Assembly: GCA_963806595.1 (NCBI GenBank)
Contig: CAWDZZ010000004.1
Location: forward strand, 191,209-255,208
DNA: 64,000 bases
Origin: an uncultured Isosphaeraceae bacterium
GTDB taxonomy: Bacteria > Planctomycetota > Planctomycetia > Isosphaerales > Isosphaeraceae
Reading direction: 5' to 3'
In this document: positions 12,480 through 43,576 of the stretch, piece after piece
Position numbering within the stretch: the first letter of the stretch is position 1
Layout of the letters: every line of letters begins with the position of its first letter
The notes under the pieces: model-generated
What the model was told of the DNA's origin: nothing
What the model saw: only the letters and a program-made list of their open reading frames with translations
Databases searched by the model: none
Program-made: the position numbers and the translations under genes

Positions 12480-12556
12480 TTCGATGCCAACAAAGGTACC
12501 TGACACCTTTAACAGGTACGCAAGATGCCAACAATGGTACCTGACACCGTTTTCCG
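12480..12556 (+). repeat. Two tandem copies of the conserved element 'GCCAACAA(A/T)GGTACCTGACACC(T/G)TT'.
   Basis: Direct sequence identity with copies at ~22.60 kb and ~30.62 kb. The spacer between the two copies contains 'CAGGTACG', which is the reverse complement of the 'GTACCTG' inside the element. Confidence 0.7.
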
Positions 12557-18506: not shown

Positions 18507-19209
18507 ATGGAAACCCTCGACGCGACGAATCACGCTTGGGAGTCCGGAACCATGGAGGTTCTCAGACAGGCCGATGGCATGCGCGAGATCGGCACCGAAC
18601 CGCTCGGATTGATTCCCGAAGCCGATTCGGGAATTCCGTCCGCGGTCGATGATCCCGACCGAATGCTCGACGGTTGCCGGCAGTATCTCCTGATGATCGC
18701 CAACGAGGTGATCGGGCCGGAACTCCAAGCCAAGCTCGGGGCATCGGACCTCGTGCAGGACACGTTCGTCGAAGCACAGCGGCACCTGGCGGGGTTTCGG
18801 GGATCGAGCAAGGCCGAGCTACGCGCGTGGCTGCGCAAGATCCTGGAATGCCGGCTGTCGAATCTCCGACGATCCTTCCTGGCGACCGAGAAGCGTGCCC
18901 CTCGGGCGCGAGGTGGCGATCGAGACCTTGCTGGGCGCGTCGGAAGCGCATGGTGACGTGCTCGCGAGCCGGTCGCCATCGCCGAGCAGCCATGCTGTGC
19001 GTTCCGAGCTGGCCGAGGCCATGGATGACGCTCTGGCCCGATTGCCCCAGCATTACCGGGAGGCCGTGCGTTATCGGCACCACGACGAACTTCCGTGGGA
19101 TGAGATCGGCCTGCGGATGCGCTGTTCGGCGGATGCGGCGCGCATGGTCTGGAGCCGGGCCATCCGACAGTTGAAGAAGGAAATGGCGAATCACGGACCC
19201 ACGCCATGA
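18507..19209 (+). CDS. ECF sigma factor of the planctomycete STK-linked type, with one apparent frameshift near 18890.
   Basis: Region 2 '...DLVQDTFVEAQRHLAGF' and region 4 '...LPQHYREAVRYRHHDELPWDEIGLRM' are both present. The TGA stop overlaps the ATG of the downstream kinase (ATGA). Confidence 0.75.
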
Positions 19210-22200
19210 GCGGCGATGAGTCGTCGCGCACTGAGCGGCGGCTGGCCGACGCAATGGCCGCCTTTGACGATGGGCTGGCCGCCGGCCGCGAGATATCGAC
19301 GGATGGGCTTGGCGAGTCTGTCGACCCCGATCTCTTGCCCGAGTGGGAGCGGCTCGCGGCTTTCTTGACCCTCGTCGAGCAAGCCTGGCCCCGCGATGCC
19401 GCCCACGCGGATCGCCGGACGGAGCCGGCCGCTGCGGGGCCAGTCGAGCATCCAGCGGACGCAGACACGGGGCCACCCCGATGCCGCAAGCTCCCCTCGA
19501 TTCGGCCGTTTCCAGATCCGGCGGACGCTGGGGCAAGGGGGCTTCGGGATTGTGTTCCTCGCCTGGGACCCGGCGCTGCGGCGGGAAGTCGCGCTCAAGG
19601 TCCCGCAGCCCGAGACCCTGGTCACGCCCGAGGCGCGGAAGCGGTTCCTCCGCGAGGCGCACGCCGCCGCGACTCTGGACCACCCCAACATCGTTCCGGT
19701 GTACGAGAGCGGCAGCGTCGGCACCGTCGCCTATATCGCATCGGCTTACTGCCCTGGGCCGACGCTCGCGGGCTGGCTGGCGCGGCAGTCTCGGCCGGTG
19801 CCGGCACGAGACGCGGTGAATCTGATCGCGAAGCTCGCCCGAGCCGTCGAACATGCCCACGAGCGCGGCGTTGTTCACCGCGACCTCAAGCCCAGCAATG
19901 TATCTGCTGCAACGGCCTGGAGGCGGATGGCGACCGCACGGCGAACCAGTCTCTTTCCGGATTTCAGCCGCGGATCACCGATTTCAGCCTGGCCTGGCTC
20001 GCCGACGGCCAAGGGCCGAAAACTCGGAGCGGTGTTCCGATTGGCTCACCTCCTTACATGGCCCCCGAACAGGCCGAGGGACGGCTCAAGGCGATCGGCC
20101 CGCCGACCGATGTCTACGGGCTGGGGTGCATTCTCTACGAGCTCTTGACCGTGCGTCCTCCCTTCCGAGGCGAGAGTCAGCTTGAAATCCTGAAGCAAGT
20201 CATCGCGGACGACCCAATCCCACCCCGGAGACTTCGGAAGGACATCCCCATCGACGTCGAGTCGATCGTCCTGAAATGCCTGGAGAAGGACCCGGCTCGG
20301 CGATACTCAACCGCAGGCGCACTGGCCGATGACCTCGACCGGTTTCTGGCCGGCGAGCCGACGAAGGCCCGGCCGCCCGGCCGTGGGAAAAGATCAGGTG
20401 CGTGGCGAAGCGGCACCCCGCGGCGAGTGTGATCGCGACGCTCGCGGTCCTCTTTGCGGGGACGCTGCTGGCAGCCAAACATTCGTTCGAGAACCGTTTA
20501 AACGATGCCGAGCACGCTTCCCATTTGCTGGAAGCACGCGTCGGAGATCACGCGTTGGCTGCGCACCGGGCTCAGTATGTCGCAGATATCCGGCAGGCGG
20601 CCCAATTGTTGCGTAGCCCCGAGAGGAACCTGGCGACCGACTTGCTCGAGCGGAACCGCCCGCGACCAGGCGAGACGGAGATACGGGGATTCGCCTGGTA
20701 TTTCCTGAGGGGCCTTTGCAACACGGAGCGGCTTAGCCTGTTCGGTCATCGCGGCGAAGTCTACCATGCCGAGTTCTCGCCCGACGGCCGGCTCCTGGCG
20801 TCTTCCGGCCAGGACGGCACGGTCCGTATCTGGGATCCCACGACGGGGTCGTTGATCCGTGAGATCCGGGCTCATGAATCCGACGTGAACTGGGTCGCAT
20901 TCGCGCCCAACGGGAAGACTCTGGCCACGACGAGCGATGATGGAAGCGTCAAGCTCTGGGAGACAGAGACTGGATTGAATCGTCTCGAACTGCCGGCCCA
21001 TCGCGGGATTGCCTTGATCGTGCTGTTCACGCCGGATGGCAAGTACGTGATCTCCTGCGGACGCGACGATGGCGACGTCAAGATCTGGGATGCCATCACT
21101 GGACTGGCGCGCGGCTCTTTCCATGCCGGCGATTCGGTCTTGGAGAACATGGCCCTTTCGCCCGATGGGTCGATCCTGGCCGTGGTGGGCGGATCCGGCA
21201 TCGCCGGGCTATGGGATCTCGCGAGCCGGCGATGTCTGACGCGTCTGGACCACGAGCGAACCGCGGTGACAGGCGTCGCCTTCTCGCACGATGGCAAAAT
21301 GGCCGCGACGGGAGCCGCGGATGAAGTCGTGCGGCTCTGGGAGGTGCGCGGGGGCCGTTTCCTGCGAGAGTTCTCCGGGCACGCCGACGATGTGCAATCG
21401 GTCGCGTTCACGCCCGACGACAAGACGCTCGTCTCGGCGGGGAACGACAATACCGTCCGGCTCTGGGACGTGGTCAAGGGCGATCCTCGAGCCGTGCACG
21501 TGGGCCACAGCGGCCGCATCTGGGGTGTCTCAATCTCGCCCGACGCGCGGACGATCGCCTCCGCCAGCCGCGATGGTACCGTCAAGCTCTGGGATTCCCT
21601 GCCGAGCGATGCCGGTACTCGCATCTTGGCGACGGATAAACTCGTGGCGCCTCTCCTTCTCGGCCGACGGCCGAACCCTGATCGCCGCAGGGGCCGATGG
21701 GCTCATCTCGAGCTGGGATGTGGAGTCGGGACATCTCCTGGATCCCGTGCGCGTCTCCGACAACGGCGCTCCGGTCGAGGTTGTCCTCAGTCGAGATGGC
21801 GGCGTAGCGGCGGTCAGGACGAAGGATGGCTTCATCGAGATTCATGACCTTGTGCTCCACCGTCGCTTGAACACGATCGGTCCCGTCGCAGGGAGTGGCA
21901 TCTCGATCGAGCTCGATCTCGACGGAGGTCGCCTGGCCGTGACCGTCGGGGGGAATGGCGTGTCGCTCTGGGAGAGCACGGGAACGATACCCTTTGCCTT
22001 CCTCGGCGGTGACATTGGTCGAGCTGTGATTGATCCCAACGGTGAAATCCGCTGTAGCGCGGACGGCGGAGCGAAACTGATCATCTGGAATCCGGCCGAC
22101 GGTCAAACGCGCGAAGGCTACGGTTTCGATTGGCGATCGTACCATTTTGCATGCTTCTCCCCTGATGGATCCACCTTCGCGTATTCCCATCGCGATTTCG

Positions 22201-22536
22201 TCTTCCTCTGGAAAGGTGACTCGCTGCAACCGTTCGCGGAACTTCACATGCCCAGAGAATCGATCCAGGCGATGGCGTTCTCGCCCGACGGAAAAGTGCT
22301 CGCCTGCGGAGACGAGCGCAGGACCAGTGAAGCTCTGGCAGATTGACACGCTCGAGGAGGTGCTCACGCTCAAGCCGTCAGGGGATCCAGTCCGCCTGCT
22401 GAGCTTCTCACCGAACGGCAAGATCCTGGCTGCTTGCACCGAGCGGTCCAACGGCACGTCAGAGATCCACCTCTGGCGCACGGCGGCGGATGACGTAGCG
22501 CCGGCAACTGGACCGGAGGGGACGCGATCGCCCTGA
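19206..22536 (+). CDS. Ser/Thr protein kinase with a transmembrane helix and C-terminal WD40 beta-propeller repeats; interrupted by at least six apparent frameshifts.
   Basis: Kinase motifs (GQGGFGIVFLA, HRDLKPSNV, ITDFSLAWLADG, YMAPEQ), then 'RWAKRHPAASVIATLAVLFAGTLL', then many 'SPDG..LA..S.DGTV.LWD' WD40 units. The sequence moves between frames 3, 1, 3, 2, 3 and 1. Confidence 0.8.
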
Positions 22537-22597: not shown

Positions 22598-22640
22598 GAG
22601 GACCTGAACAATGGTACCTGACACCTTTTTCAGTACGTCC
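22598..22640 (+). repeat. Single copy of the conserved element 'GAACAATGGTACCTGACACCTTTTT'.
   Basis: Identical core to the copies at 12.5 kb and 30.6 kb. It lies between the end of the kinase at 22536 and the formate dehydrogenase operon. Confidence 0.7.
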
Positions 22641-22751
22641 TATCCGCTCGTCTCTTACCGAATTAGACTGGGACGCTCATCGTAAGTTTCGTGTCGCTCT
22701 ACGCTGTGAAGGTGATCGATCAGGCTCCGCCTTGGCGTTACAAGTAAGGAG

Positions 22752-25700
22752 ATGACGATGTTCAAATTACCGATCGTGGCCCGCTCGCAACCGTCGCAAC
22801 CACAGACCCAGCCGTTCAGCCCGCAGACGGCGGAGAAGACCTCACGGTTGCGTGGTGCTACCGTCACGGAAGGGCTGTGTCCGTACTGCGCCGTCGGCTG
22901 TAGCCAGCTCATTTACACCAAGCGCGGCCAGCTCATCGATATCGAGGGAGACCCGCGCAGCCCGATCAACGAGGGCACACTATGCCCCAAGGGTTCAAAC
23001 GCGTTACTCCTGGCCGTCAACCCGCACCGCGTGAAGACCGTCCGCTACCGGGCTCCCTACTCCGAATAAATGGGAGACCCGAACCCTCGACTGGGCACTC
23101 GATCAGATCGCTCTCCGCGTCAAAGCGGCACGGGACGCCGACTTCACGGCGAAGGACCAAGAAGGTCGCATGCTGAACTCAGTGCGGAACATGGGGACCC
23201 TCGGCGGCGCGACGCTCAACATCGAAGACAACTATCTGATCAAGAAGTTGTTCTGCGGTGGTCTGGAGTTGTCTCGATCGAAAACCAGGCACGAACTTGA
23301 CACTCCGCTTCGGTGCCCGGTCTGGGCGCCTCGCTTGGCCGCGGCGCGGCCACCAATTACCAGCAGGATCTGCCGAATAGCGATTGCATCTTGATCATGG
23401 GCTCGAACATGGCCGAGGCCCATCCCGTGGGTTTCCGATGGCCCATGAAGGCCAAGGAGGCGCGGCGCAACATTGATCCACGTGGACCCGCACTTTTCGC
23501 GCACGTCGGCGCACTGCGACCTCTATGTCCCGATTCGGACCGGCACCGACATCGCGTTTCTCGGCGGCATCATTCACCATATCCTGACCCATGACCGCTG
23601 GTTCAAGGAATATGTCCTGGCATACACCAATGCGTCGAACCTGATCCAGGAGGGCTTCCAGGACACCGAGGACCTGGACGGCCTGTTCAGTGGCTACGAC
23701 CCAGATACCGGCACCTATGACGCCGTGAAGGGACACTGGGTGTACGGCGCTCGGCCGGCAGCCAAGACGGTCCGGACGGGCCGGTGGAGGAGGGTCGGGC
23801 CGACCCGTCCGCGCCGCGAGAGGCTGAGAGCGAGTCCCGCAAAGGGGTTCACGGTTATGCCATCGATGGCGGGGCCACCACGAATGCCGCGGCGCGTTCG
23901 GAAACGTCGCCCAAGCCCAATGGTCGCCCGGTGCGCGACCCAACCCTGCAGCACCCCCGTTGCGTCTTCCAGATCCTCAAACGCCACTTCTCTCGATATA
24001 CGCCGGAGACAGTATCCCAGGTGTGCGGGTGCCCGGCTGATGAGATCATTCGGGTTGCCGAGCTGCTCTGTGCCAACTCTGGTCGTGACCGGACGAGCGT
24101 TCTGGTCTACGCTGTGGGCTGGACCCAGCATACGACCGGCGCCCAGATCATCCGCACGGGGGGCATCCTGCAACTTTTGCTGGGCAACATCGGTCGCCCC
24201 GGTGGTGGGATCCTGGCGCATGCGCGGCCATTCCAGCATCCAGGGCTCGACGGACGTCGCGACGTTGTATGACCTGCTGCCTGGCTATCTCCCTCAGCCC
24301 ACGGTTGACAGAGTCCACGAGACGCTGGATTCCTACGTCGCGCACCAAGGTTTGGCCACCGGGTACTGGTCCCACTTCCGCGAATTCGCCGTCAGCCTGC
24401 TCAAGGCGTGGTACGGGGACGCCGCCGGACCCGCGAACGACTACCATTTCGACTGGCTGCCGCGCATTGATGGCGACCATTCGCAACTGCCAACCTTCAA
24501 CCGCATGTCACGGGGCGAGCTCAAAGGCTACTTCCTCTTCGGCCAGAACCCGGGCGGCGGCGGCATCAACGCGGGGCTGCACCGCGCAGGCCTGCGTAAC
24601 CTCGAATGGCTGGTGGTGCTCGACTGGTTCGAGACCGAAAGCGCCGTCTTCTGGAAGAGCGACCCGAACGGGCCGCCGCCATCCGACATCAAGACCGAGG
24701 TTTTCTTGATCCCCGCCGCGGCGAACCCGGAGAACGACGGAACGCTGACTAACACGCAACGGCTGCTTCAATGGCACTCAAAGGCGATCGACCCGCCCGA
24801 GGATTGCCGCTCCGATTCCTGGTTCGTCTACAACCTCGGGAAGCGGCTCCGCCAGCTCTACGCCGGCTCGACCGATCCCAAGGATCAGCCACTGCTTTCT
24901 CTCACCTGGGACTACGACTACGACTCACCGGCGCGGCTTCCCGACGGCTCAATGAGCCGCATCGAGGGGGATGTGGACGCCGAAAAAATCCTGATGGAGA
25001 TGAACGGCTGCAAGCTCGATGAGACCGACCCGCGGACCGGTCGGCCGCGCCTCTTGACCGGCTTCTCGGAACTGAAGGGAGACGGCACGACGGCATGCGG
25101 CGTCTGGATCTACAGCGGCGTCACGCCCGAGCCCGGTCGCAACCGGGCCCGCGAGCGCAGGCGACAGATAATCCGATTCATCCGGAATGGGGATTTGCCT
25201 GGCCGGACAACCGCCGCGTGCTTTTCAACCGCGCCTCGGCCGATCCCGATGGCCGGCCTTGGTCGGAGCGGAAAAAGCTCATCTGGTGGGATGCCGAAAA
25301 GCGCCTCTGGGTGGGACTCGACCGGCCGGACTTCGAGCCGGACAAGCCCCCCGACTATCGCCCTCCGCCCGGTGCGACCGGCATGGCTGCGATCGCCGGC
25401 AACGAGCCGTTCATCATGAAGCCCGACGGCGTCGGCTGGCTCTTCGCCCCCAGTGGCGCCAAGGACGGCCCATTGCCGGCGCACTACGAGCCGCTCGAGT
25501 CGCCGGTCGGCAACTTGCTCTACCCCAGGCAAGCCATGTACACCCGGGCGTGCGCACGTTCCCGGGACCACTGAACCGGCTGGCGCGCGCGTCCCGAGAC
25601 CGAGTACCCGGTGGTGGCCACCACCTACCGTCTCACCGAGCACTACCTGAGCGGGCCGATGAGCCGGTTCAACTCATGGCTCAACGAATTGCAGCCGGAG

Positions 25701-26111
25701 ATGTTCGTGGAACTGAGCCCCGAGCTGGCGGCCGAGCGCGGCATCGTCCACGGCGGGTGGCTGACAGTCAGCTCGGCGCGTGGCCGCATCGAGGCGCGCG
25801 CGATGGTGACCGGGAGGATGCGTCCTCTCGTCGTCGATGGGCGAGTGATCCACCAGATCGGCCTCCCATTTCACTGGGGCTTTGCCGGCCAGACCGTCGG
25901 CGGCAACGCCAACGACCTGACCTCGCTGGTGGCTGAGCAAAACATCAGCATGCACGAGGGAAAGGCATTCGGCTGCCAGGTCGAGCCCGGCCGCCACAGC
26001 GGACGCCCTCCGCGTGCAACGGTGTCACTGGTGACCTGGCCGACCCGCACGCCGATTCCCGACACGCCGGCCTCAGCCCAGCCGGAGGGGGAGTTCACGC
26101 ATGGCCATTAG
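22752..26111 (+). CDS. fdnG: Formate dehydrogenase alpha subunit (Mo-bisPGD, FdnG/FdoG-like), selenocysteine-containing. At least five apparent frameshifts.
   Basis: N-terminal Fe-S motif CPYCAVGCS...CPKG. 'IENQARTUHSASVPGLGASLGRGAATN' aligns with the E. coli FdnG 'QAR(U)H...GRGAMTN' selenocysteine context. C-terminal 'RLTEHYLSGPMSRF...IGLPFHWGFAG'. Ends with TAG overlapping the fdnH start. Confidence 0.85.
23298..23300 (+). other. In-frame TGA at the conserved selenocysteine position of the formate dehydrogenase alpha subunit (predicted Sec codon).
   Basis: Reading through TGA keeps the conserved sequence contiguous, joining ORFs 23070-23300 and 23313-23594 in one frame. Confidence 0.75.
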
Positions 26112-27066
26112 AGAGCTCGAACTGGAGGCTCTGCCGCAAACCGGCGACCCACCGATCGGCCCGCTATCAGCGATCCTGAGACGACTCACCTGGCCATTCC
26201 GGCGCGGTCGTGCTCCGGAGCACCGTCCGGCCACAGGCTTCTACACGGACACCACGGTTTGCATCGGCTGCAAGGCGTGCGAAGTCGCCTGCAAACAATG
26301 GAATCAGCTTGCCGCGGATGGGCTCAACTGGACCGGCAACAGCTACGATAACACGGCCGAGCTCTCCGCCACGTCATGGCGACACGTGAAATTCATCGAG
26401 CAGTTCGCCGCGAATGGACGGCCCGCTTGCCCCGATCTCGCCGACTCCGGGGAAACGAGCCGCGAAGTCACTCTCGACCAGTTGTTGAACGGGGGCGGGG
26501 CCGATCGCTGGTTGATGATGAGCGACGTCTGCAAACACTGTGTCGCGGCCCCTTGCCAGCACGCTTGCCCCACGGGTGCCATCATTTATAACGAGTTTGC
26601 GAACGTTTATATCCAGCACGATATCTGCAACGGCTGCTCGTACTGTATCGCGGCCTGCCCGTTCGGGGTCATCACCCGCAGCGACTTCGATGGCCACTCG
26701 CACAAGTGCACGCTCTGCTACGACCGCCAGCGAGACGGTCTCGTCCCGGCCTGCGCGAAGGCTTGCCCGACAGAATCAATCCAGTTCGGGCCGATCGACG
26801 AGCTGCGCGATCGGGCTCGAAAGCGAGTCGATGAGCTTCACGCGCGAGGCGTCCCGGAAGCTTACCTCTACGGCGAGGAACCCGGCGAGACCTACTCGGA
26901 GCTCCATTCTTTCTATCTCCTCATCGATCGTCCTGCCGTCTATGGACTCCCGGAAGCTCCCTTCAATCCGTGGCTGCACTTGATCGGTGATTACGTGCGC
27001 ACCATCGTGAGCGCGCTGGCCACGGTCGCCGCGATCCTCGCGGTGTTATTCTTCCAGGGAAGCTGA
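26101..27066 (+). CDS. fdnH: Formate dehydrogenase beta subunit (4Fe-4S ferredoxin-type, FdnH-like) with a C-terminal membrane anchor.
   Basis: Multiple CxxCxxCxxxCP motifs (CIGCKACEVAC, CKHCVAAPCQHACP, CNGCSYCIAACP, CTLCYDR...CAKACP). Intact 321-aa ORF overlapping the fdnG stop. Confidence 0.85.
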   Translation: MAIRELELEALPQTGDPPIGPLSAILRRLTWPFRRGRAPEHRPATGFYTDTTVCIGCKACEVACKQWNQLAADGLNWTGNSYDNTAELSATSWRHVKFIEQFAANGRPACPDLADSGETSREVTLDQLLNGGGADRWLMMSDVCKHCVAAPCQHACPTGAIIYNEFANVYIQHDICNGCSYCIAACPFGVITRSDFDGHSHKCTLCYDRQRDGLVPACAKACPTESIQFGPIDELRDRARKRVDELHARGVPEAYLYGEEPGETYSELHSFYLLIDRPAVYGLPEAPFNPWLHLIGDYVRTIVSALATVAAILAVLFFQGS

Positions 27067-27077
27067 GATGCCGGGCG

Positions 27078-27977
27078 ATGGCCAGACGCGGACGATTGAG
27101 CCCGGTTATTCGAGCCTCGGAGGTGACCAAGGTGCCGGGCTGGCACGGGCTGGTCGCCTGGGATCTGCTCTTCAACAACTTGACAACCGGGCTCTTCCTG
27201 TTCGCAGCGGTCGGCGAGCTTGCGTTCCCGGGGTTGCTCGCCCCCGTCGCCAAGGCGGCGTATCCCGTCTGCGCTCTGCTTCTTGCTGATCGACCTGATG
27301 CTCTTGGTGCTCGACCTGGGCGACCCGCTTCGGTTTCACCACATGCTGCGAGTGTTCAAGCCCAGTTCGCCCATGTCGCTGGGTACGTGGAGCCTGACCG
27401 TCTATTCGTTGCCGCTGACCTTGATCGTCGCGATCGAAGCGGCGCAAGCGATCAACCTGCTGCCGCCCGATTCGATCGCGCTGGAATGGGTTCGTAGAAT
27501 GGCCGTTGTCGCCGGGTTGCTTCCCGCCTTCGGATCGCTCGCCTACAAGGGGGTGCTCTTCAGCACGAGCTCGCAGCCGGGCTGGAAGGACGCCCGATGG
27601 CTGGGCGGTTTCATGGCCAATTCCGCACTCATGCTGGGTTGCGCGGTGATGCTCGCCGTGTCGGTCCTGACCGGACACCCGCGGGCCGCCGCCGATCTCT
27701 CCGGACCGTCCTCATGGTGCTGCTTCCACTCAACATCATTCCAGCGGGTCTATTATTCGCAGAATTTCACAAGACTCTGTTTCGGCTCTACGCCGACCGG
27801 CAGGTTTATCTTGCCTTGGTGCTTCTCTTCGTCGGAGGAACACTGATACCGCTCGTCCTCCTGCTCGTGGGGGATGGCGCCCCCGGAATCCTCGGTGCTG
27901 TTTCGCTCATCGTGCTAGGGAGTCTGGCGATTCGTTCTCTCTTCATGAAGATCCCGCACGCTTCTCATGAAAAGTAG
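27078..27977 (+). CDS. NrfD/PsrC-family integral membrane subunit of the formate dehydrogenase complex, with two apparent frameshifts.
   Basis: 'DLGDPLRFHHMLRVFKPSSPMSLGTW' matches the NrfD-family hallmark DLGRPxRFxH...SxMSxGxW. Multiple TM segments are spread across three frames. Confidence 0.65.
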
Positions 27978-28048
27978 ATCATGATGGGAATGATGAAGCA
28001 CGTTGTCGTCGAGATCACTCGATCCGCGGCCCTGTCGCGGGAGGGCAC

Positions 28049-28991
28049 ATGACCAGGCCATGCTACAGGACCGGAGTCGCGAGCGTCCCGGTCGAGCGAG
28101 TAACGGGGTCGCTGTCACTTCAAGCGATCGACCTACTGTCGGTCGAGGAACCGCTGGAGATCCGAGTCCGGAGTCGAGGGACGGCGGTGCTCCCAGGTCG
28201 GTCGCGGTGACGATGCGGACGCCGGGCGACGACGTCGAGCTGGCGGCCGGCTTCCTGTTCACGGAAGGGTTCATCACTGAGCGGGACGATCTGGAGGGCG
28301 TCGAGCGAACGGGGCCGAATGCGGTGCAAGCAAGGCTGCGGCCCGGGGTCGCCCTGGACCCGGCAAAGCTGGACCGTCATTCGTTCGTCTCCTCCAGTTG
28401 CGGTGCGTGCGGCAAGCGGTCGATCGCCGCCGTGCGCGCGTGCTGCGCCGGCATCGGATCGCTCCGGGGGAACCTCGAGTCGCCCCCCTGGTCATCCACG
28501 GCCTGGCGGACTCGCTCCGGGCCGGTCAGACGGGGTTTGCCCGAACCGGCGGCATCCACGCCTCGGGCCTCTTCGATGCATCCGGCGGACTGCTCGGCCT
28601 CCGGGAGGACGTTGGCCGCCACAACGCCCTGGACAAGCTGATCGGGGCGGAGCTCCTCGCCGCCCGGACGCCGCTGGCCCTTCGCCTGGTGCTGGTCAGC
28701 GGCCGGGTCAGTTTCGAGCTGGTGCAGAAGGCGGCGATCGCCGGTGTTCCGGTCGTGGGCGCTGTCGGGGCTCCGTCCAGCCTGGCGGTCGAGCTGGCCC
28801 GCGAGTGCGGAATGACATTGCTCGGCTTCGTCCGAGATGGGCGTTTCAATGTGTACTCTGACTTCGGCCGGATCGATTCAACAGATGACGAACCCATTTC
28901 GCGTAACGGGATGCGACTGATCGGAGGCGAGCACGCCATTGCGACTGAAGGCCAACTCGACTCGAATCCGGATGGATCGCCAGGACAATGA
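28049..28991 (+). CDS. fdhD: Formate dehydrogenase accessory sulfurtransferase FdhD, with at least two apparent frameshifts.
   Basis: 'VAVTMRTPGDDVELAAGFLFTEG', 'SSSCGACGKRSI' and 'EDVGRHNALDKLIGAELL' are FdhD signatures. Confidence 0.8.
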
Positions 28992-29195
28992 GGGCGCTCT
29001 TCGATCATGGCCGAATCGTCGATGCTCTCCGTTTCGGCCCAAGCCTGGCATTCTCGTACGCCGTGGAATCTGGACCGGCGCCCTCGAAACCGCCCGAAGG
29101 CGTCTCACGTCAACGGGCGCCTGGCGAATAGGATTAAGTTTCGGGGACACCATGCAATTATCGACAGAGATTTGTAAATTCCGTATTCCCCGAAG

Positions 29196-29640
29196 TCAGC
29201 CGAGGGCGTGGCCCTTCTGCCGGAATGCCTCGGCGAGCTTGCGCGTGCTCTTGCAAGTCCACCGAAGGGGCGACTGAGGGTCGCCTCGGGTCACGGGATC
29301 GACGAGGTCTTCCAGGTCTCTAAGGAGCCGGGTGTCGTGCTCGACGAGGGGCTTCCGATCTCCGCCGGGCCGTCGCACACGACTTTGCGACTCGCCCACC
29401 TCGCCCTCCGCCCCCGCCTGTTGCTCCCGAATGCCGCCGGAGATGGTCGTCCGGGACAGGCCGGTGGCGAGGGCGACCGTCGTGACGCCGCCCCAGCCGA
29501 TCTCCTGTGCGTCGGCTGCGGCCCAGAGCCGCCGGAGCCTCTCGTTAAGGAGCGGCCTCAGGGCCCGGTATTTACGCCGGATGCTCTCGATGAGGGCTGC
29601 GTCTGCCACGGCGATAGGAACCTTGGCTGTGGGACCAGTC
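29196..29640 (-). mobile_element. Truncated ISAzo13-family ('Rhodopirellula-type') transposase; N-terminal ~150 aa only, hence an IS remnant or pseudogene.
   Basis: 'ADAALIESIRRKYRALRPLLNERLRRLWAAADAQEIGWGGVTTVALATGLSRTTI...RVRRPGGDRKPLVEHDTRLLRDLEDLVDPVTRGDPQSPLRWTCKSTRKLAEAF' matches the conserved N-terminus of ISAzo13-like transposases. The DDE domain is absent. Local GC content is lower than the surroundings. Confidence 0.6.
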
Positions 29641-29730
29641 GAAGCGGGGTGCCGATGCCTTGTTAGGACAGGGGCAGCGAATCTGATCGCCGTGGGTTCC
29701 GCCGTCCGGGCCGAGCTGGCGGCTCTTGGG

Positions 29731-30000
29731 TCAGGAGCCCACATCCGGCCATGCCCAGTAACCGAGTCTAGCCCGCTGGAGCAAGGCAGCAATGACGGAG
29801 CCGACAGCGAACACGATGAACGGATTCCGACACCTGCCCCACCTCGTGGAGATGTAGTAGATCAGGAACGGGGGGAAGAGGATGCATGCGACACCGAGCT
29901 TCCAGTCCTCCTTCATCGCCAGATAGATGATCAGGCCGATGCCACCAAAGACGGCGATCAGCGAGACGACCCACTGAAGGACTAACAGCAGAATGTTCAC
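29731..30000 (-). CDS. Small two-TM membrane protein, hypothetical.
   Basis: Hydrophobic segments 'LLLVLQWVVSLIAVFGGIGLIIYLA' and 'GVACILFPPFLIYYIS'. The start position is uncertain. Confidence 0.3.
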   Translation of the reverse strand: MNILLLVLQWVVSLIAVFGGIGLIIYLAMKEDWKLGVACILFPPFLIYYISTRWGRCRNPFIVFAVGSVIAALLQRARLGYWAWPDVGS

Positions 30001-30614: not shown

Positions 30615-30680
30615 ACGAAGAATGCCAACAACGGTACCTGACACCTTTTTCAGCAACGGTACCTGACACCTTTTTCTCAG
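30615..30680 (+). repeat. Two tandem copies of 'CAACGGTACCTGACACCTTTTT', preceded by 'CAGGTACGAAGAATGCCAACAA'.
   Basis: Direct repeats three nucleotides apart. Same core as the copies at 12.5 kb and 22.6 kb. Confidence 0.7.
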
Positions 30681-33078: not shown

Positions 33079-33653
33079 TGAACGAAGTGACCCGCATCCT
33101 CGCGGCGATCGAACAGGGGCGACGCGCAGGCGGCCGATCAGCTCCTGCCGCTGGTCTACGACGAGCTGCGCAAGCTGGCCGCCCAGCGGCTCGCCCGCGA
33201 GGAGCCCGGCCAGACGCTCCAGGCGACGGCGCTGGTGCACGAGGCGTATCTGCGCCTGGTCGACGGCGAGCCGGACCGGGCCTGGAACGGCCGCGGCCAC
33301 TTCTTCGCCGCGGCGGCCGAGGCCATGCGGCGCATCCTCGTCGAGAACGCCCGGCGCAAGCGGCGGCTCAAGCACGGCGGCGCGCGGCGGCGGGTCGAGC
33401 TGGATGAGGCCGTCCTCGCGGTCGACGGGCCGCCGCGGAGGAGATGCTGGCCGTCGACGAGGCCCTGGAACGCCTCGCCGCCGAGGACCCGCAGGCCGCC
33501 GAGCTGGTCAAGCTGCACTACTTCGCCGGGCTGACCATCGAGCAGGCCGCCGAGGTGCTCGGGGTCTCGCCCCGAAAAGGCTATCGGATCTGGGCTTACG
33601 CCCGGGCCTGGCTGTTCCGCTCCCTGGGTGGCGAGGACCCGGACGGGGGCTGA
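33079..33653 (+). CDS. ECF sigma factor of the planctomycete STK-linked type, with two apparent frameshifts near 33110 and 33430.
   Basis: '[60 protein letters not shown]' and '[39 protein letters not shown]' are present. One insertion is an extra G in a G-run. Confidence 0.8.
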
Positions 33654-33746: not shown

Positions 33747-36700
33747 ATGAGCGCCACCAGCCCCGACGTGAAATCGATCTTCGGCCGGGCCCTGGAGATC
33801 GAGTCGCCGGCCGAGCGGTCCGCATTCCTGAGCGAGGCGTGCGCGGCCGAATCCGGCGCTGCGCGCCGAGGTCGAGGACCTGCTCCGCGCGATGGCGGGC
33901 GCCGGGGATTTCATGAATCGGCCGGCGCCGCCGGACTCGGTCACGATCTCGCACGCCCCGATCCTGGAAGGGCCCGGGCACGCGGATCGGCCCGTACAAG
34001 CTCTTGCAGCAGATCGGCGAGGGGGGCATGGGCGTCGTCTACATGGCCGAGCAGGAGCAGCCCGTCCGGCGCAAGGTCGCGCTCAAGATCATCAAGCCGG
34101 GGATGGACAGCGCCCAGGTCGTCGCGCGGTTCGAGGCCGAGCGCCAGGCGCTGGCCGTGATGGACCACACCAACATCGCCCGGGTCTTCGACGCCGGCAC
34201 GACCGAGATCCGGGCGGCCCTACTTCGTCATGGAGCTGGTCCACGGCGTGCCGATCACGAAGTTCTGCGACGACAACCAGCTCACGCCCCGCGAGCGGCT
34301 CGAGCTGTTCGTGCCGGTCTGCCAGGCGATCCAGCACGCGCACCAGAAGGGGATCATCCACCGCGACATCAAGCCGTCGAACGTGCTGGTGACGATGTAC
34401 GACGACAAGCCGGTGCCCAAGGTGATCGACTTCGGCGTGGCCAAGGCGATCGAGCAGCGGCTGACCGAGCGGACGCTGTTCACCCAGTTCGGCGCCCTGG
34501 TCGGCACGTTCGAGTACATGAGCCCCGAGCAGGCCGAGATGAACGCCTTCGGCGTGGACACGCGGAGCGACATCTACTCGCTGGGCGTGCTGCTCTACGA
34601 GCTGCTGACCGGCACGACGCCGCTGGAGAAGCAGCGGCTGCGCCAGGCGGCGCTGGGCGAGCTGGTGCGGCTGATCAAGGAGGAGGAGCCGCCGCGGCCG
34701 AGCGTGCGGCTCTCCGGCTCGGGCGACCTGCCGAAGATCGCGGCGGCGCGGAAGACCGAGCCGGCGCGGCTGTCGAAGCTGGTGCGGGGCGAGGTCGACT
34801 GGATCGTGATGAAGTGCCTGGAGAAGGACCGGACGCGGCGGTACGAGACGGCCAGCGGGCTGGCCAGGGACGTCGAGCGCTACCTGCACGACGAGCCGGT
34901 GGAGGCGTGCCCGCCGTCGGCCGGCTACCGGCTGCGGAAGTTCGCCCGCAAGCACCGGACGGCGCTGGCGGTCGCGGCGGGCTTCCTCGTCCTGCTGGTG
35001 GCCGACGTCCTCTTCAGCACGTGGCAGGCCGGGGTGGCGCAGGCGGGCCGAGCATGCGGACGAGGCGCGAGGCGGCCCGGGCCGTCGAGGCCGAGCAGCA
35101 TGGCCCGTGCAGGAGCGGGACTCGGGCCGAGGCCGGGCGGGTCGAGGCCGAGGCGGCCAGGCAATCGCTGCGGCGGTCGCTGTACGCCTCGGACATGCAA
35201 CTGGCCGAGGAGGCCTGGGAGTCGGGCGATATCCCCCGGATGCGCGACCTGCTGGAGGGGCATCGGCCGCGGCCGGGCACGCCCGACCTGCGCGGCTTCG
35301 AATGGCATTACCTGCGCGGGCTGGGCACGACCGTCCACGTCGCCACGCTGGCCCAGGACGCGACCTTCGGACGAGCTCAGTCCCGATGGGACGCGTTACG
35401 TCTACGTGGGGAGGCTCGTCGCGCCGCAGGCGCCGGACGCGGGCTCGAAGATCGAGCTGAAGCTGCTGGACGTCGCCTCGGGCCGGCCGGTGCGCACGAT
35501 CGTCCCCTTCCCGGGCGAGTCGATGAGCAACGTCGATGTTCGGCTCACGTTCAGCCCCGACGGCAAGCGTTTCCTCGCTCGCGGCTCGCGTCATGCGACG
35601 CGTCGGGCCGGTTCGATTGGCGGATCAAGGTCTTCGACTGGGAGACCGGTCGCGGCGTGTGCACGCTCGCCGATCTCGGCGGCGTGCCGGGCGCCGCGGC
35701 CTTCGACCGCTCGGGCGGGCGGCTGGCCGTGGTGATCCGTCCGGCGGCAGGGCACGGCGGGGAGCGACCTGAGGATCTGGGACCTCGCCGGCGGCAAGCA
35801 GCGCCTCGCGATCCCGTTGCCGGGCCGGCAAGTCGTGCACCTGCGGCACTCCGTGGCGTTCAGCCCCGACGGGGCCCGCCTCGCGGCCTTGACGAAGCCC
35901 GTCGGCTCCGAGGTCGTCCCGGTCCGCGGGCGAGGTCCGCGTCTGGGACGCCGGCTCGGGCGAGGAGCGGCTCCGGTTCGAGACCGGGCCGGCGTCGGCC
36001 GCCCTGGCGTACAGCCCGGACGGCAAGTGGCTGGCGGAGATCGCCGGCGGCGGGGCCTCGCACCGGCTGCGGGATGCCGGCTCGGGCAAGGAGGTCCTCG
36101 AGCTCACGTCGGCGCCGATCGCCGGGATGACGCTAGGCGATCGCCTTCAGCCCCGACGGCTCGCGGCTGGCCGGCAGTTCGGAGGATAGCAAGGTGCGGA
36201 TCTGGGACGTCACGGACGTCGAGACGGGAGGCGGCCGCGCCCCGATCCGCATCCTGGATGGAAAGATCGCCGTGCTGACCCAGGTGGCCTGGAGTGCCGA
36301 TGGCCGGCAGGTCTTCGCTTCCAGCGACGGCGGCACGGTCCTGTCGTGGCCGGTCGCCTCGCGCGAGCCGCATGTCGCGGTGAGGGGATCGGGCCAGACC
36401 GATCGGATCGCGGCAACCGCGGCCGCCGCCGGCTCGCGGTTCGCCGCCGCGTTCGAGGCCCCCGATGGGGAGACCGTGCTGAAAGTCTGGGATGAGGCCG
36501 GCAAGGTCCTCTTCACGGCGAACGCCGCCCCCGCGGGTCACTACCACCCCCCTCTTCAGCCCCAAGAAGGTCGAGCTCAGCCGCGACGGCACCCGCCTGG
36601 CCTACCACGGCTGGGATCCGGGCGGGGTGGACGGGAAGTCGAAGCCCGTCGGCCGGCTGCGCGTCTGGGATGTCGCGACGGGCCGGGAGGTGTTCCGCCG

Positions 36701-37643: not shown

Positions 37644-38690
37644 TCAGTACGAATCCGCCGAGATCACTTCCCCGCCGTTCTTGCTTCCGAGAGCGGACCA
37701 AGTTTCAAGGTTTACGCTGCTCTTGATGAAGCGAATGGATCCGTCCGAGAAGAGGACGTTGACGCCGCCCGAGTGGCGACTCGAGGCGGTAGAGGCCGTG
37801 GGGCACTGGTTGGTCGCGGTCTCGATGGTTGCCGCACCGATGTTGTTGAACACACAACTGATTCCGTTGGGCGGAATGAGGTGGTTGTACCGGGTCGCCG
37901 TGTAGTAGCCGGTGATCCATGTCCGGCCGCTATAGGAATTCTGGTTCGTCGTCCCCGGTCACGCCGATCGGATTCAACGCAATGCATGTGGCGTAAACGT
38001 CGGCCTTGGCGGCTGGTGGGGGGGATGATCCCGAACCAGTCACCCGGGACGGAGGAGCGTGTTGGGGTCGCCGTCGCCGAGTATCCGTTCGGAGAAGAGG
38101 GCCGTGTTGCTCGACCCGTCGGTGATCTGGGCGAGGCCGATCGTCTTGAACGCGATGAACACCCCGTTGTTCGTTTCAATGGTCTTGGGTGGCATCCAAC
38201 GTGCCGGTGTCATTGCCCCCGTTGGCCTGGTAGTTGATCCGGGCATATCCGACGAAATCGTTCGTGTTAGCGTCATTGCCCATCCGGTCGAAGTCGGAAG
38301 GGCAAAGGAGGGCGGTGATCGAGGTCTGAACGACCGTTGTGACGCCCGGGTCCTTGACGCCCAGCGAGAAATTGATGCTGTTCGCCAGCACTGATTGTTC
38401 GATGAACGGCAGCAGCCGGGCCGTCTGACCCCAGAGATTGGTGTTGCCGGTGGCGAAACTGAAGACCGCGGGCGGGAAAGTGTCGTTGACCGAATGGTAG
38501 TTGTGAGCGGCCAGGCCGATCTGCTTGAGATTGTTCACGCACTGAATCCGGCGGGCCGCCTCACGCGCCGCTTGTATCGCGGGGAGCAACAGTGCGATGA
38601 GCACGGCGATGATGGCTATCACGACCAGTAACTCGATCAGTGTAAAACCGAGCGACCGGAGACGTGAATAGGATTTCGGATGAAGTCATT
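37644..38690 (-). CDS. DUF1559 protein of the planctomycete pseudopilin-like 'H-X9-DG' family (prepilin-type N-terminal cleavage/methylation domain); at least three apparent frameshifts.
   Basis: '[52 protein letters not shown]', internal '[11 protein letters not shown]', and C-terminal '[17 protein letters not shown]'. One frameshift coincides with a T homopolymer. Confidence 0.75.
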
Positions 38691-41061: not shown

Positions 41062-43042
41062 TTATTGTGTCCAGATGGCGGCGATGTGGTCCTGGCCGCC
41101 CGTGGTGTATCCGCTGACTGACTCCAGTCGATAGCCCTCGGAGACGAGCTGGTCGAAGGTCGACTGGTACTGGGCCGGAGTCAGGCCGTGGCGCGCCTGC
41201 CAGGCCGGCGAGCCTGAGATCTGGCGGAAGATGGCGGCGTAGAGGTCCTGCGCGCCGTCGCTGTAGCCGCAAACCACGACCGGCTGATAGCCCTGGCTGG
41301 TGACGTCGTTGAAGAAGGACTGGTACTCACCCGCAGTCAGGCCGTGGCGGGCCTGCCAGGCCGGAGCGCCGGTGTGCTTGCGCCAGATGGCGGCGTAGAG
41401 GTCCTGGCTGCCGTCGAAGTAGCCGCTAACCCAGTCGAGCACGTAGCCCTCGCCGGTGAACTGGTTGAACGCCGCCTGATACTGCGCGGCGGTCAGGCCG
41501 TGGCGAGCAGCCCACGCCGCCGGTCGCGCCTTGCTGGAAGATGCAGGCGAACCGGGGGCCGGCGGAGGTGGCGTAGCCGTTCACGAGCACGGGGTAGTAG
41601 CCTTCCGCGGTGAGCTGGTTGAACGTGGTCTGGTAGTCCGCAGCGGTCAGTCCGTGGCGGGCCTGCCAGGCGGGCGGGGAGGCGGTCTTGACCCAGAGTG
41701 CGGCGTAGAGCGGTGCCGCGCCGCCGTAGCCGCTGACGTCCATCAACTGCATACCGTGGTTGCCGACATAGTCGTTGAACGCCTCCTGGTATTGCTCGGC
41801 GGTGAGGCTGTGACGGGCGATCCAGCCGCCCGTCGGGATCGCCGGCGCGATGTTGTCGAGGTAGATCTGGGTGACGACATCGCGGAAGAACTGGCCGGTG
41901 CTTCCGATCGGGGAGTTCGCAAACACCACCAGCTCCATGTCGCGCGGCAGGAAATAGGAGAGGCTCTGCTCCGTCTGGCTGATACCCGACTCCCAGAGGC
42001 CGTTCTTGTTGTAAAGCGTGCCGAGGCTCGTCGACTGGATCAGGTCGATGCCGAAGCTGGCGTCCAGCATGCTCTGCGCGGCGGCGGCCGACATGATCGT
42101 GCCCTGGCGACGGAAGCAGCCCATCAGCTCCAGCAGGTCGTCCACCGACATGTGCCAGCCTGCGCCGCCCGATTCAGTGGTGAGGTCGCCAGAGTTCCAG
42201 CCGGCAGCGGGCGGGAAGGCGTAGGCGAGTGCGTCCGGGTCAGGATGAGTGAGCGTTGGGCCGGATACGCCGGCGGGCTGGAACAGAAATTGCGCGACGT
42301 AGTCGGCATAGGCGGTGACGGTGGTGAAATCCCAGACCTGGTCCTCGGTGGGCGCGGGGAATGTGGTGCTTGCCGGGATCGTGCCGTTCATCACCGGCAG
42401 CAGGATGCGGCAAATACCGAAGTTCATGTTTTGATAGGAGTACTGGCCGAGATTGGCGGTCGTGACGCCGCTTGCGACCTGCGCCTTCATCGTCGGGTAG
42501 GACATGTCCGAGCCGGTAACGCGAAAGCCGGATGTGTGGGTCATCAGGTCGGCGAAGGTGATCTTGTCGATGTTCGGCCCCTTGGTCCAATAAGCCGGCA
42601 GGTAGTCGATGATCTTCGTCGAGGGGGGCAGGTTGTGGGCGGCGAGCGTGCGCGTCATGGCAACGGCGGTCACGAGCTTGCTGCAGCTCGCGATGTGCAT
42701 GCGGATACTCTGTACCCAGGCCTGCGACCCGTCGGCGGGCTCCTTGGCCCAGCCGAGCTGGGCGGAGGCAATGGGCTGGCCATGTTGCCGGAGCTGCATC
42801 ACGTAGCCGGCGGTGCTGCTGGCGAGCGCACTGTTCAGGGCGGCGACGAAGCCATCGGTGTTGAACGAGAGCGCGACGCCGGCGGGCTGCGCGCGGAGGG
42901 TGAACTTCGTCGTTCCCTCCTCGAGCCCACGGGAGCTCTTGACTCCGCGAGTGTGCGGCGGCTGCATCACGTGTGCGGCGGCAGCGTCACGGTCAAACGC
43001 GAACCCAGAGGACAGGACAACGCGCCCGGCTGTTCCGTTCAT
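41062..43042 (-). CDS. Beta-lactamase-family serine hydrolase with C-terminal tandem ~45-aa repeats (BTRD1-like); one apparent frameshift near 41440-41520.
   Basis: 'HIASCSKLVTAVAM' (SxxK motif). Repeats follow the pattern 'AWQARHGLTAxxYQxxFNxL..GYxPVxVxGY'. Confidence 0.7.
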
Positions 43043-43576
43043 CAGATCCCCCTCTTTCTGCTTCGGCGGTGCTTGGAGTCCAGGCCGTGTCTCTGAAACC
43101 CAACAACCGGAGATCCTTCTCGCTCATGGCGACCATCCAGAACGCGAGGTCGTGCGCGGTCCGTTGCGTGCCGCGTCGGTAGCCGGCGGCCTGACTTGCA
43201 CGGACGCACGGCGCGCTTCAGGATGATCCGAGACGCGCTAACGCCTCGATGATCTCCACCCGGTTACGCCGCAACAAGGGCATCCGCTCGGCTTATGCGT
43301 TGCGGCGGCGCGGTTCGGTGACGTCGACCGAAGCAGCCAGGCCGCGGGGCGAGGAAGTCGGTCAGACTGGTTTCCTGGGTGGTTTTCGACTAATGGAAAC
43401 GGGGGTTGGGCCGTAGTTACAGGGAGGGCGCGACGCCTGGATTCGTGTGACACGGCGGAGCTGGTCGATTCGGCCCGGTAGCGCCACCGGCTTCGAGCGT
43501 TTGATGGCGACCGAATGGCCGGCGGCGCAGGAATGATTCCAGATTCCTTGAGGGGGAGGCTGCCCATGTTTTATCC

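Follow-up and report, generated by a model that had tools for sequence, protein, structure and literature searches.

A selenocysteine-type formate dehydrogenase cluster with an NrfD-like membrane subunit in an Isosphaeraceae genome, and the probable assembly errors that obscure it

The stretch of DNA under study, hereafter the window, comprises 64,000 nucleotides of contig CAWDZZ010000004.1 from an uncultured bacterium of the Isosphaeraceae (Planctomycetota), and it carries a formate dehydrogenase (FDH) cluster of four consecutive genes at 22758-28991, as read from a three-frame translation of 22600-29100 and a list of the open reading frames (ORFs). All coordinates are positions in the window and refer to the plus strand unless stated otherwise. 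The cluster codes for a predicted selenocysteine (Sec)-containing alpha subunit of the molybdenum or tungsten bis-pyranopterin guanine dinucleotide (Mo/W-bis-PGD) type (22758-26111, about 1116 residues once corrected), a beta iron-sulfur subunit (26101-27066, 321 residues, intact in the ORF list), a membrane subunit of the NrfD/PsrC family (27068-27977, about 302 residues with 8 predicted helices) and FdhD, the sulfurtransferase and chaperone for FDH maturation (28049-28991). The products of these genes switch between reading frames in the three-frame translation, and the extents of the alpha, membrane and FdhD genes are thus given as they emerge from frameshift-aware alignment, for the alpha subunit to the relatives P0001 and L001 and for the membrane subunit to its homologue in L001, to which it is 76% identical. 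The alpha gene likely starts at the ATG at 22758 (MFKLP...) rather than at 22752, with an N-terminus as in L001. A direct reading of the sequence places a Shine-Dalgarno-like AAGGAG at 22746-22751, 6 nt upstream of this probable start, and the start of the beta gene overlaps the end of the alpha gene by 11 nt.

Family models agree with the gene content proposed in an earlier note on this DNA, namely an alpha subunit, a beta subunit with four [4Fe-4S] clusters, an NrfD/PsrC-type membrane subunit in place of FdnI, and FdhD. The alpha subunit was scored in its frameshift-corrected form, with U written as C, and passes the cut-offs of both NCBIfam NF041513 ("formate_DH_Act", 1429.4 bits against 1400) and TIGR01553 (970.6 bits against 814.2). 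Its Pfam domains are Molybdop_Fe4S4, Molybdopterin and Molydop_binding, the N-terminal [4Fe-4S] motif CPYCAVGC...C being recognized by PF04879 with an E-value of 6e-14, and it matches the structures 1KQF (E. coli FdnG), 1H0H (D. gigas FDH) and 6SDR (D. vulgaris Sec-FdhA) with E-values of about 1e-220. The corrected protein is 91% identical to P0001 in a frameshift-aware alignment. The alpha subunit also contains an insert at about residues 300-389 (window positions of about 23750-23930), rich in Gly, Asp, Pro and Arg and carrying a conserved RKGVHGYAIDGG motif; this insert has no counterpart in solved FDH structures, whose matches are split in two stretches, and is absent from the relative P0004.

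The remaining subunits are assigned with scores of differing strength. The beta subunit carries four Cys motifs for [4Fe-4S] clusters, at residues 54, 144, 176 and 203, and ends in a transmembrane helix at 298-321; its best NCBIfam match is the FDH-beta model TIGR01582, at 163.5 bits and thus below the equivalog cut-off of 334.7, and in Pfam it matches Fer4_11. The membrane subunit reaches 39.2 bits for PF03916 (NrfD), against a cut-off of 25.8, and also matches PF14589; it shows no match to the cytochrome b FdnI, to any NCBIfam model or, at the level of sequence, to any entry of the PDB. FdhD passes TIGR00129 (142.8 against 140.9), matches PF02634 with an E-value of 1e-62 and contains the SSSCGACGK cysteine loop, while its score for NF001943 (243.6) lies below the cut-off of 269.

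A genome scan with the N-terminal fragment of the alpha subunit as query yielded 81 related loci, which span more than ten phyla, including Planctomycetota, Acidobacteriota, Chloroflexota, Actinomycetota, Eremiobacterota, Verrucomicrobiota, Gemmatimonadota, Alphaproteobacteria and Myxococcota, among others. The closest relatives of the cluster are found in Isosphaeraceae and in Planctomycetota metagenome-assembled genomes (MAGs) from soil. The order alpha-beta-NrfD is kept in nearly all 81 loci and, together with the matches to NF041513, TIGR01553, PF03916 and TIGR00129, bears out the description of the cluster as a Sec-type, FdnG-like FDH. The position of fdhD differs, the gene being located downstream of the anchor gene in the window and upstream of the alpha gene in L001.

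The alpha gene is interrupted by a TGA at 23298-23300, which stands in frame between ...VVSIENQART and HSASVPGLGASLGRGAATN and aligns with the Sec residue of 6SDR (QART-U-HSAS against QARI-x-HSPT, within IEHQARIxHSPTVPALAESFGRGAMTN of 6SDR), at the position where FdnG-type enzymes carry selenocysteine, as the earlier note had recognized. The homologous codon is TGA in 80 of the 81 related loci, Illumina-based MAGs and isolate genomes included, and TGC in the one remaining locus (L041, Roseitranquillus sediminis). The close relatives have TGA, which counters the possibility raised beforehand that they would carry a Cys codon and that the TGA here would be a reading error. The manner in which the homologues are annotated follows the same codon. 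All 120 database homologues listed are 850-950 residues long and cover only the part after the TGA (82% of the query), and four of the five homologues retrieved start at (M/V)PGLG, immediately after it, as expected where gene callers stop at a Sec UGA. Two relatives have an Fe4S4 fragment of 180 residues as one called gene and, after a gap of 12 nt, the remaining 930 residues as the next. Judged by this conservation, the TGA at 23298-23300 is a real selenocysteine codon.

The earlier note had seen no obvious Sec insertion sequence (SECIS) hairpin after the TGA; this was mistaken, as a conserved hairpin lies at 23312-23330. It reads GGUGCCC-GGUCU-GGGCGCC, with a 7-bp stem at nucleotides 15-33 counted from the U of the UGA and with G23 and U24 in the loop, and it is contained in the minimum-free-energy fold of the 63 nt that begin at the UGA, the full element extending over about 23298-23340. 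The same hairpin occurs in nearly all relatives. In an ungapped alignment of 75 sequences, of which the 72 distinct ones were used for pairing and covariation, 95% of the cells are paired in the stem (nucleotides 15-21 with 27-33), and three of the seven pairs show changes on both sides. The observed covariation score was matched by none of 500 shuffles, and control pairings with a slid partner strand were paired in 30-53% of cells. The pair formed by the third positions of a Val GUN and a Gly GGN codon occurs as G-C (45), C-G (17), U-A (3) and A-U (2), and that formed by the third positions of a Pro CCN and a Leu CUN codon as C-G (63), G-C (4), A-U (2) and U-A (2). These co-varying positions are synonymous, so that conservation of the protein cannot explain the pattern.

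The details of the hairpin may be read against those of the E. coli fdhF element, in which the apical stem-loop occupies nucleotides 15-31 and the positions G23, U24 and U17 are described as essential (PMC8659212). Across the 75 sequences neither U17 nor G23 varies, and U24 is kept in at least 90%; for U17, which is bulged in the fdhF-type element, pairing with A31 or G31 is predicted. In the Cys-codon orthologue L041 (10424-10468 of that locus) the loop GGUCU has become GGCCU and the closing pair is replaced by a C.C mismatch, and the loss of the loop sequence in this locus serves as a natural control for the element. On the strength of fold and covariation, an E. coli-type SECIS hairpin is present at the canonical distance of about 11 nt after the UGA.

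The machinery for Sec insertion is encoded beside a number of the orthologous clusters. The E. coli SelA, SelB and SelD sequences used as tblastn queries match selD, selA and selB with E-values between 1e-40 and 1e-80 in ten loci (L009, L015, L021, L034, L069, L073, L074, L077, L080 and L081), in each case beside the orthologous FDH cluster, and these matches, obtained in the same run as the search of the window, validate the queries. A tRNA-Sec gene is located within 10 kb of the FDH cluster in eight loci (L009, L015, L021, L073, L074, L077, L080 and L081), three of which are confirmed by Rfam. The order in L015 is FDH cluster, tRNA-Sec, selD, selA and selB.

The second feature that obscures the cluster is its frameshifts, which were called by a frameshift-aware dynamic programme for protein-to-DNA alignment; it replaced plain tblastn, which had merged frames through gaps. 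The programme is unreliable at gene ends and for relatives below about 60% identity, and only close relatives were thus used. Fourteen frameshifts were found, all of one base: nine in the alpha gene, near 23064(+1), 23263(-1), 23457(+1), 23746(-1), 24216(+1), 25162(-1), 25533(+1), 25540(+1) and 25589(+1); three in the NrfD-like gene, near 27113(+1), 27267(+1) and 27703(-1); two in fdhD, near 28178(-1) and 28447(-1); and none in the beta gene. The corrected frames contain no stop besides the TGA at 23298-23300 and no larger lesions. In the comparison with L001, the two parts of the alpha gene have ratios of nonsynonymous to synonymous substitution rates (dN/dS) of 0.10 and 0.19, and the NrfD-like and fdhD genes have ratios of 0.24 and 0.26, respectively; the intact beta gene has 0.16. 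The cluster is unbroken in L001/L002, L003 and L005-L008, all close relatives, and L013, a further Nanopore soil MAG, carries its own set of five frameshifts.

Genes elsewhere in the window are broken in a similar manner. The Pkinase domains of three genes for Ser/Thr protein kinases, unrelated to the cluster (19206-20432, 33917-35732 and 55228-57139), are split over two frames, with complementary profile coordinates of 2-129/137-259, 1-70/73-256 and 1-97/79-251, and a WD40 gene at 20402-22346 is likewise split, which shows that the indel problem is window-wide and not limited to the FDH cluster. A count of frameshifts over the whole window by choosing frames on the GC content of third codon positions was non-discriminating, as antisense frames also score high. 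Related MFD MAGs are Nanopore-only assemblies that were polished once with Medaka (PMC12313526). Seven of the 14 frameshift sites have a GCGC no more than 8 nt away, as compared with 10% of positions (binomial 1.8e-4, the comparison being post hoc), and GCGC is also near three of the five sites in L013. One of the insertions, the extra G at 23457 in AAGGAG[G]CGCGGCGC, is common to the window and L013 (position 10699 of that locus), which are 83% identical in nucleotides, and nucleotide alignment shows that it is missing from L001/L002, L003, L005, L007 and L036. The shared G would best be explained by a base-calling error that depends on the sequence context, possibly at a methylated motif.

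The earlier note had reported apparent frameshifts in the alpha, membrane and FdhD genes and had left their reality open; their presence stands, and with high confidence the 14 frameshifts can be put down to errors of long-read assembly rather than to mutations of the organism. A true pseudogene cluster, in which the frameshifts are real and the enzyme is not made, is improbable by comparison. It would account for 14 frameshifts in three of the four genes, for the one shared with L013, and for a locus that appears rearranged, as a stump of an ISAzo13-type transposase stands directly downstream and the cydAB genes of the closest relatives are missing here. Yet all of the indels concern single bases, the corrected frames are free of stops and larger deletions, the corrected alpha subunit is 91% identical to P0001, and the broken genes do not differ in dN/dS from the intact beta gene. 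The SECIS hairpin is intact, the enrichment of frameshift sites near GCGC is as for context-dependent base-calling errors, and the similar breakage of unrelated genes in the window points at the assembly. Programmed ribosomal frameshifting, for which the extra G following the Shine-Dalgarno-like AAGGAG at 23451-23457 is the candidate site, is very improbable. The same additional base does occur in two assemblies of 83% identity, directly after a perfect Shine-Dalgarno-like AAGGAGG, yet the site lacks a slippery codon or a stop context, the base is absent from the other relatives named above, and P0001 is one continuous ORF through this point; moreover, the other 13 sites are unshared and have no common frameshift signal, and AAGGAG encodes a conserved Lys-Glu.

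Just as improbable is a TGA that represents a true stop or a misread TGC or TGT, which would leave the enzyme split or of the Cys type. The use of TGC in L041 and the error-prone assembly speak for it, as does the composition of the window, in which no selA, selB or selD was found (tblastn, nothing better than E=0.46), as the earlier note had also stated, and in which ARAGORN and Rfam found no tRNA of any kind, tRNA-Sec included. The TGA is shared by nearly all related loci, Illumina-based MAGs and isolate genomes among them, the assembly errors are indels and not substitutions, the co-varying hairpin is located at the canonical distance, and sel genes and tRNA-Sec adjoin orthologous clusters; all of this argues for a Sec codon. 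Several observations nonetheless weigh against an operon that is intact in the organism and dependent on selenocysteine. The sel genes are missing from the window, although their absence from 64 kb says little about the whole genome. A local search with Rfam SECIS_3 gave 25.1 bits (E=0.0012) for the hairpin region, where the gathering score is 63, and by this wide shortfall the hairpin does not qualify as a member under the standard of Rfam; at gathering scores, neither the window nor seven related loci gave a SECIS hit, and the relatives yielded tRNA-Sec only. For a sequence of its composition, the 63-nt fold has no exceptional stability (z = -1.4). The extra G shared with L013 could be a real mutation common to both, and the sequencing technology of the window was inferred, its best genome match (L013) being 83% identical.

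Taken together, the evidence strongly favours a normal, functional operon for a Sec-dependent, membrane-bound formate:quinone oxidoreductase. SelB and Sec-tRNA(Sec), encoded elsewhere in the genome, would bind the GGUCU loop and allow Sec to be inserted, and FdhD would sulfurate and insert the cofactor. As shown by homology, formate would be oxidized at the Sec-ligated Mo/W-bis-PGD centre and its electrons conducted through five [4Fe-4S] clusters; they would pass from the cluster of the alpha subunit to the four of the beta subunit, and from there to the NrfD-like subunit, which has no heme, to reduce a quinone at a site within it. In the closest relatives (L001/L002, L003, L013 and the contig of P0001) the NrfD-like gene is followed by cydAB, coding for a cytochrome bd oxidase, about 6.1 kb after the TGA, and the arrangement suggests a formate-to-quinol-to-cytochrome bd chain. 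The window lacks cydAB. The transposase stump mentioned above occupies 29196-29792 on the minus strand, directly downstream of fdhD, and only the first 38 positions of PF07592 are matched by it.

The side of the membrane on which formate would be oxidized may be approached from the sorting signals and from the charge of the membrane loops. In none of 82 alpha N-termini is an RR motif followed by a hydrophobic region, and neither the alpha nor the beta subunit shows a Tat or general secretory signal in the 82 family members. There is a stop codon close upstream of the alpha start in the window, and the alpha gene of L001 begins 13 nt after fdhD. The N-terminus of the beta subunit in the window has no twin-arginine translocation (Tat) signal, and its RR is not conserved in L001; its helix stands at the extreme C-terminus, with Arg on the N-terminal flank. 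The loops of the NrfD-like subunit hold 12 Lys and Arg residues on the side of the termini against two on the other side, and in 46 of 48 homologues the termini side is likewise the richer one (medians of 14 and 7), the helix boundaries having been set by eye and applied to the homologues through the alignment. The termini of PsrC point to the P side, on which PsrB docks, and an inverted position has been proposed for SoeC only (PMC8076601). By the positive-inside rule, the charge bias thus suggests an inverted subunit and a cytoplasm-facing enzyme, and an alpha-beta dimer that faces the cytoplasm is somewhat favoured. By a slighter margin of confidence, the missing Tat signal, the bias in Lys and Arg and the tail-anchor-like beta helix lead to a similar proposal for the NF041513/FqoABC family across its more than ten phyla, whose members would be cytoplasm-facing, heme-less formate:menaquinone oxidoreductases with an NrfD-like subunit inverted in comparison with PsrC. 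A different view has been taken for the homologue of Rhodococcus equi, for which a paper of 2026 assumed a degenerate Tat signal and removed the putative Tat peptide (PMC13332983). Without a heme cytochrome b there would be no transmembrane electron transfer, so that, as judged from the predicted subunits, the redox loop of FdnGHI cannot operate. If the cytoplasm-facing proposal is true, formate would be oxidized inside the cell without a redox loop of that type, and the conservation of energy would be left to the downstream oxidase.

The cluster thus looks decayed, and its alpha subunit is not called at full length, yet it probably represents a normal selenoprotein operon that is hidden by gene callers and by long-read indels. 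Both effects will hide FDH and the use of selenium in metabolic reconstructions of soil planctomycetes and of many other MAGs. No bacterial selenoprotein is more widely distributed than FdhA (PMC13188914), and the comparative data provide a covariation-supported SECIS model for this most widespread family outside Enterobacteria. They also raise the question of orientation for the uncharacterised FDHs of the FqoABC type.

Several further features of the window may be mentioned. The 19-nt motif GGTACCTGACACCTTTTTC occurs five times on the plus strand with at most two mismatches (0 expected by chance), at 12495-12513, 12536-12554, 22613-22631, 30633-30651 and 30658-30676. The copies lie in apparently intergenic stretches, one of them 127 nt upstream of the alpha start and two in tandem 25 nt apart, and the motif may be a repeat of this planctomycete that is either regulatory or similar to repetitive extragenic palindromic (REP) elements. 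Neighbouring genes are typical of planctomycetes and include a tyrosine recombinase/phage integrase (61670-63094, minus strand) and an extracytoplasmic function (ECF) sigma factor beside a kinase (33091-33531, plus strand). Others code for a DUF1559 protein with a prepilin-type N-methylation motif (38179-38685, minus strand) and a beta-lactamase-fold protein with polyglycine-hydrolase-like repeats (41429-43123, minus strand), and TPR/GT41, DUF5695 and astacin-type genes are located in the first 22 kb.

Among the known systems, the closest counterpart is FqoABC, a putative formate:quinone oxidoreductase with an architecture of FdnG-like, FdnH-like and NrfD-like subunits that was named in 2021 for Actinobacteria, Chlorobi, Crenarchaeota, Chloroflexi and Deltaproteobacteria (Calisto & Pereira, PMC8076601); a heterotrimer of FDH-alpha, beta and NrfD was also predicted and modelled for Rhodococcus equi 103S in 2026 (PMC13332983). 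The cluster of the window resembles FqoABC in its FdnG-like alpha subunit, which scores above the NF041513 cut-off, in an FdnH-like beta subunit with a C-terminal helix and in a clustered gene for a cofactor-less, 8-helix NrfD-like protein. It differs in that the Planctomycetota were not among the phyla of 2021, and the literature draws or assumes a periplasmic enzyme for what is a biochemically uncharacterised family. By its predicted composition the locus is a planctomycete member of this known kind, and not of the FdnGHI type, as both FdnI and a Tat signal are missing. The architecture has therefore been described already, and the less-known points suggested here are the lack of a Tat signal and the apparently inverted membrane subunit.

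The E. coli FDH-N (FdnGHI, 1KQF) has a homologous alpha subunit (E=2.6e-225) with the same Sec position, the U-H motif and the N-terminal [4Fe-4S] cluster, as well as a four-cluster beta subunit with an anchor helix, and FdhD is a requirement of both systems. In contrast, the cluster of the window has an NrfD-type subunit instead of FdnI, a four-helix, di-heme cytochrome b; it lacks the Tat signal, its alpha subunit contains an insert of about 70-90 residues, and its beta subunit falls below the TIGR01582 cut-off. The SECIS elements of E. coli fdhF and fdnG likewise form a hairpin in the coding sequence right after the UGA, with the stem-loop at nt 15-33 and a GGUC(U) loop, whereas here U17 is predicted to be paired (U-A or U.G), the lower stem is weak and no Rfam gathering score is reached. 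The W/Sec-FdhAB of D. vulgaris (6SDR) provides the best solved match for the N-terminal third of the alpha subunit (E of about 1e-86), with the Sec position and motif in register, yet FdhAB is a soluble periplasmic heterodimer that has a Tat signal and neither a membrane subunit nor a beta anchor helix. With regard to orientation, the nearest parallel is the sulfite dehydrogenase SoeABC, which also combines a Mo-bis-PGD enzyme with Fe-S and NrfD-like subunits; a position facing the cytoplasm and an inverted membrane subunit have been proposed for it (PMC8076601), the same arrangement as is proposed here. SoeABC differs in its catalytic subunit and substrate and carries no Sec, and the orientation of the planctomycete enzyme is a prediction drawn from sequence only.

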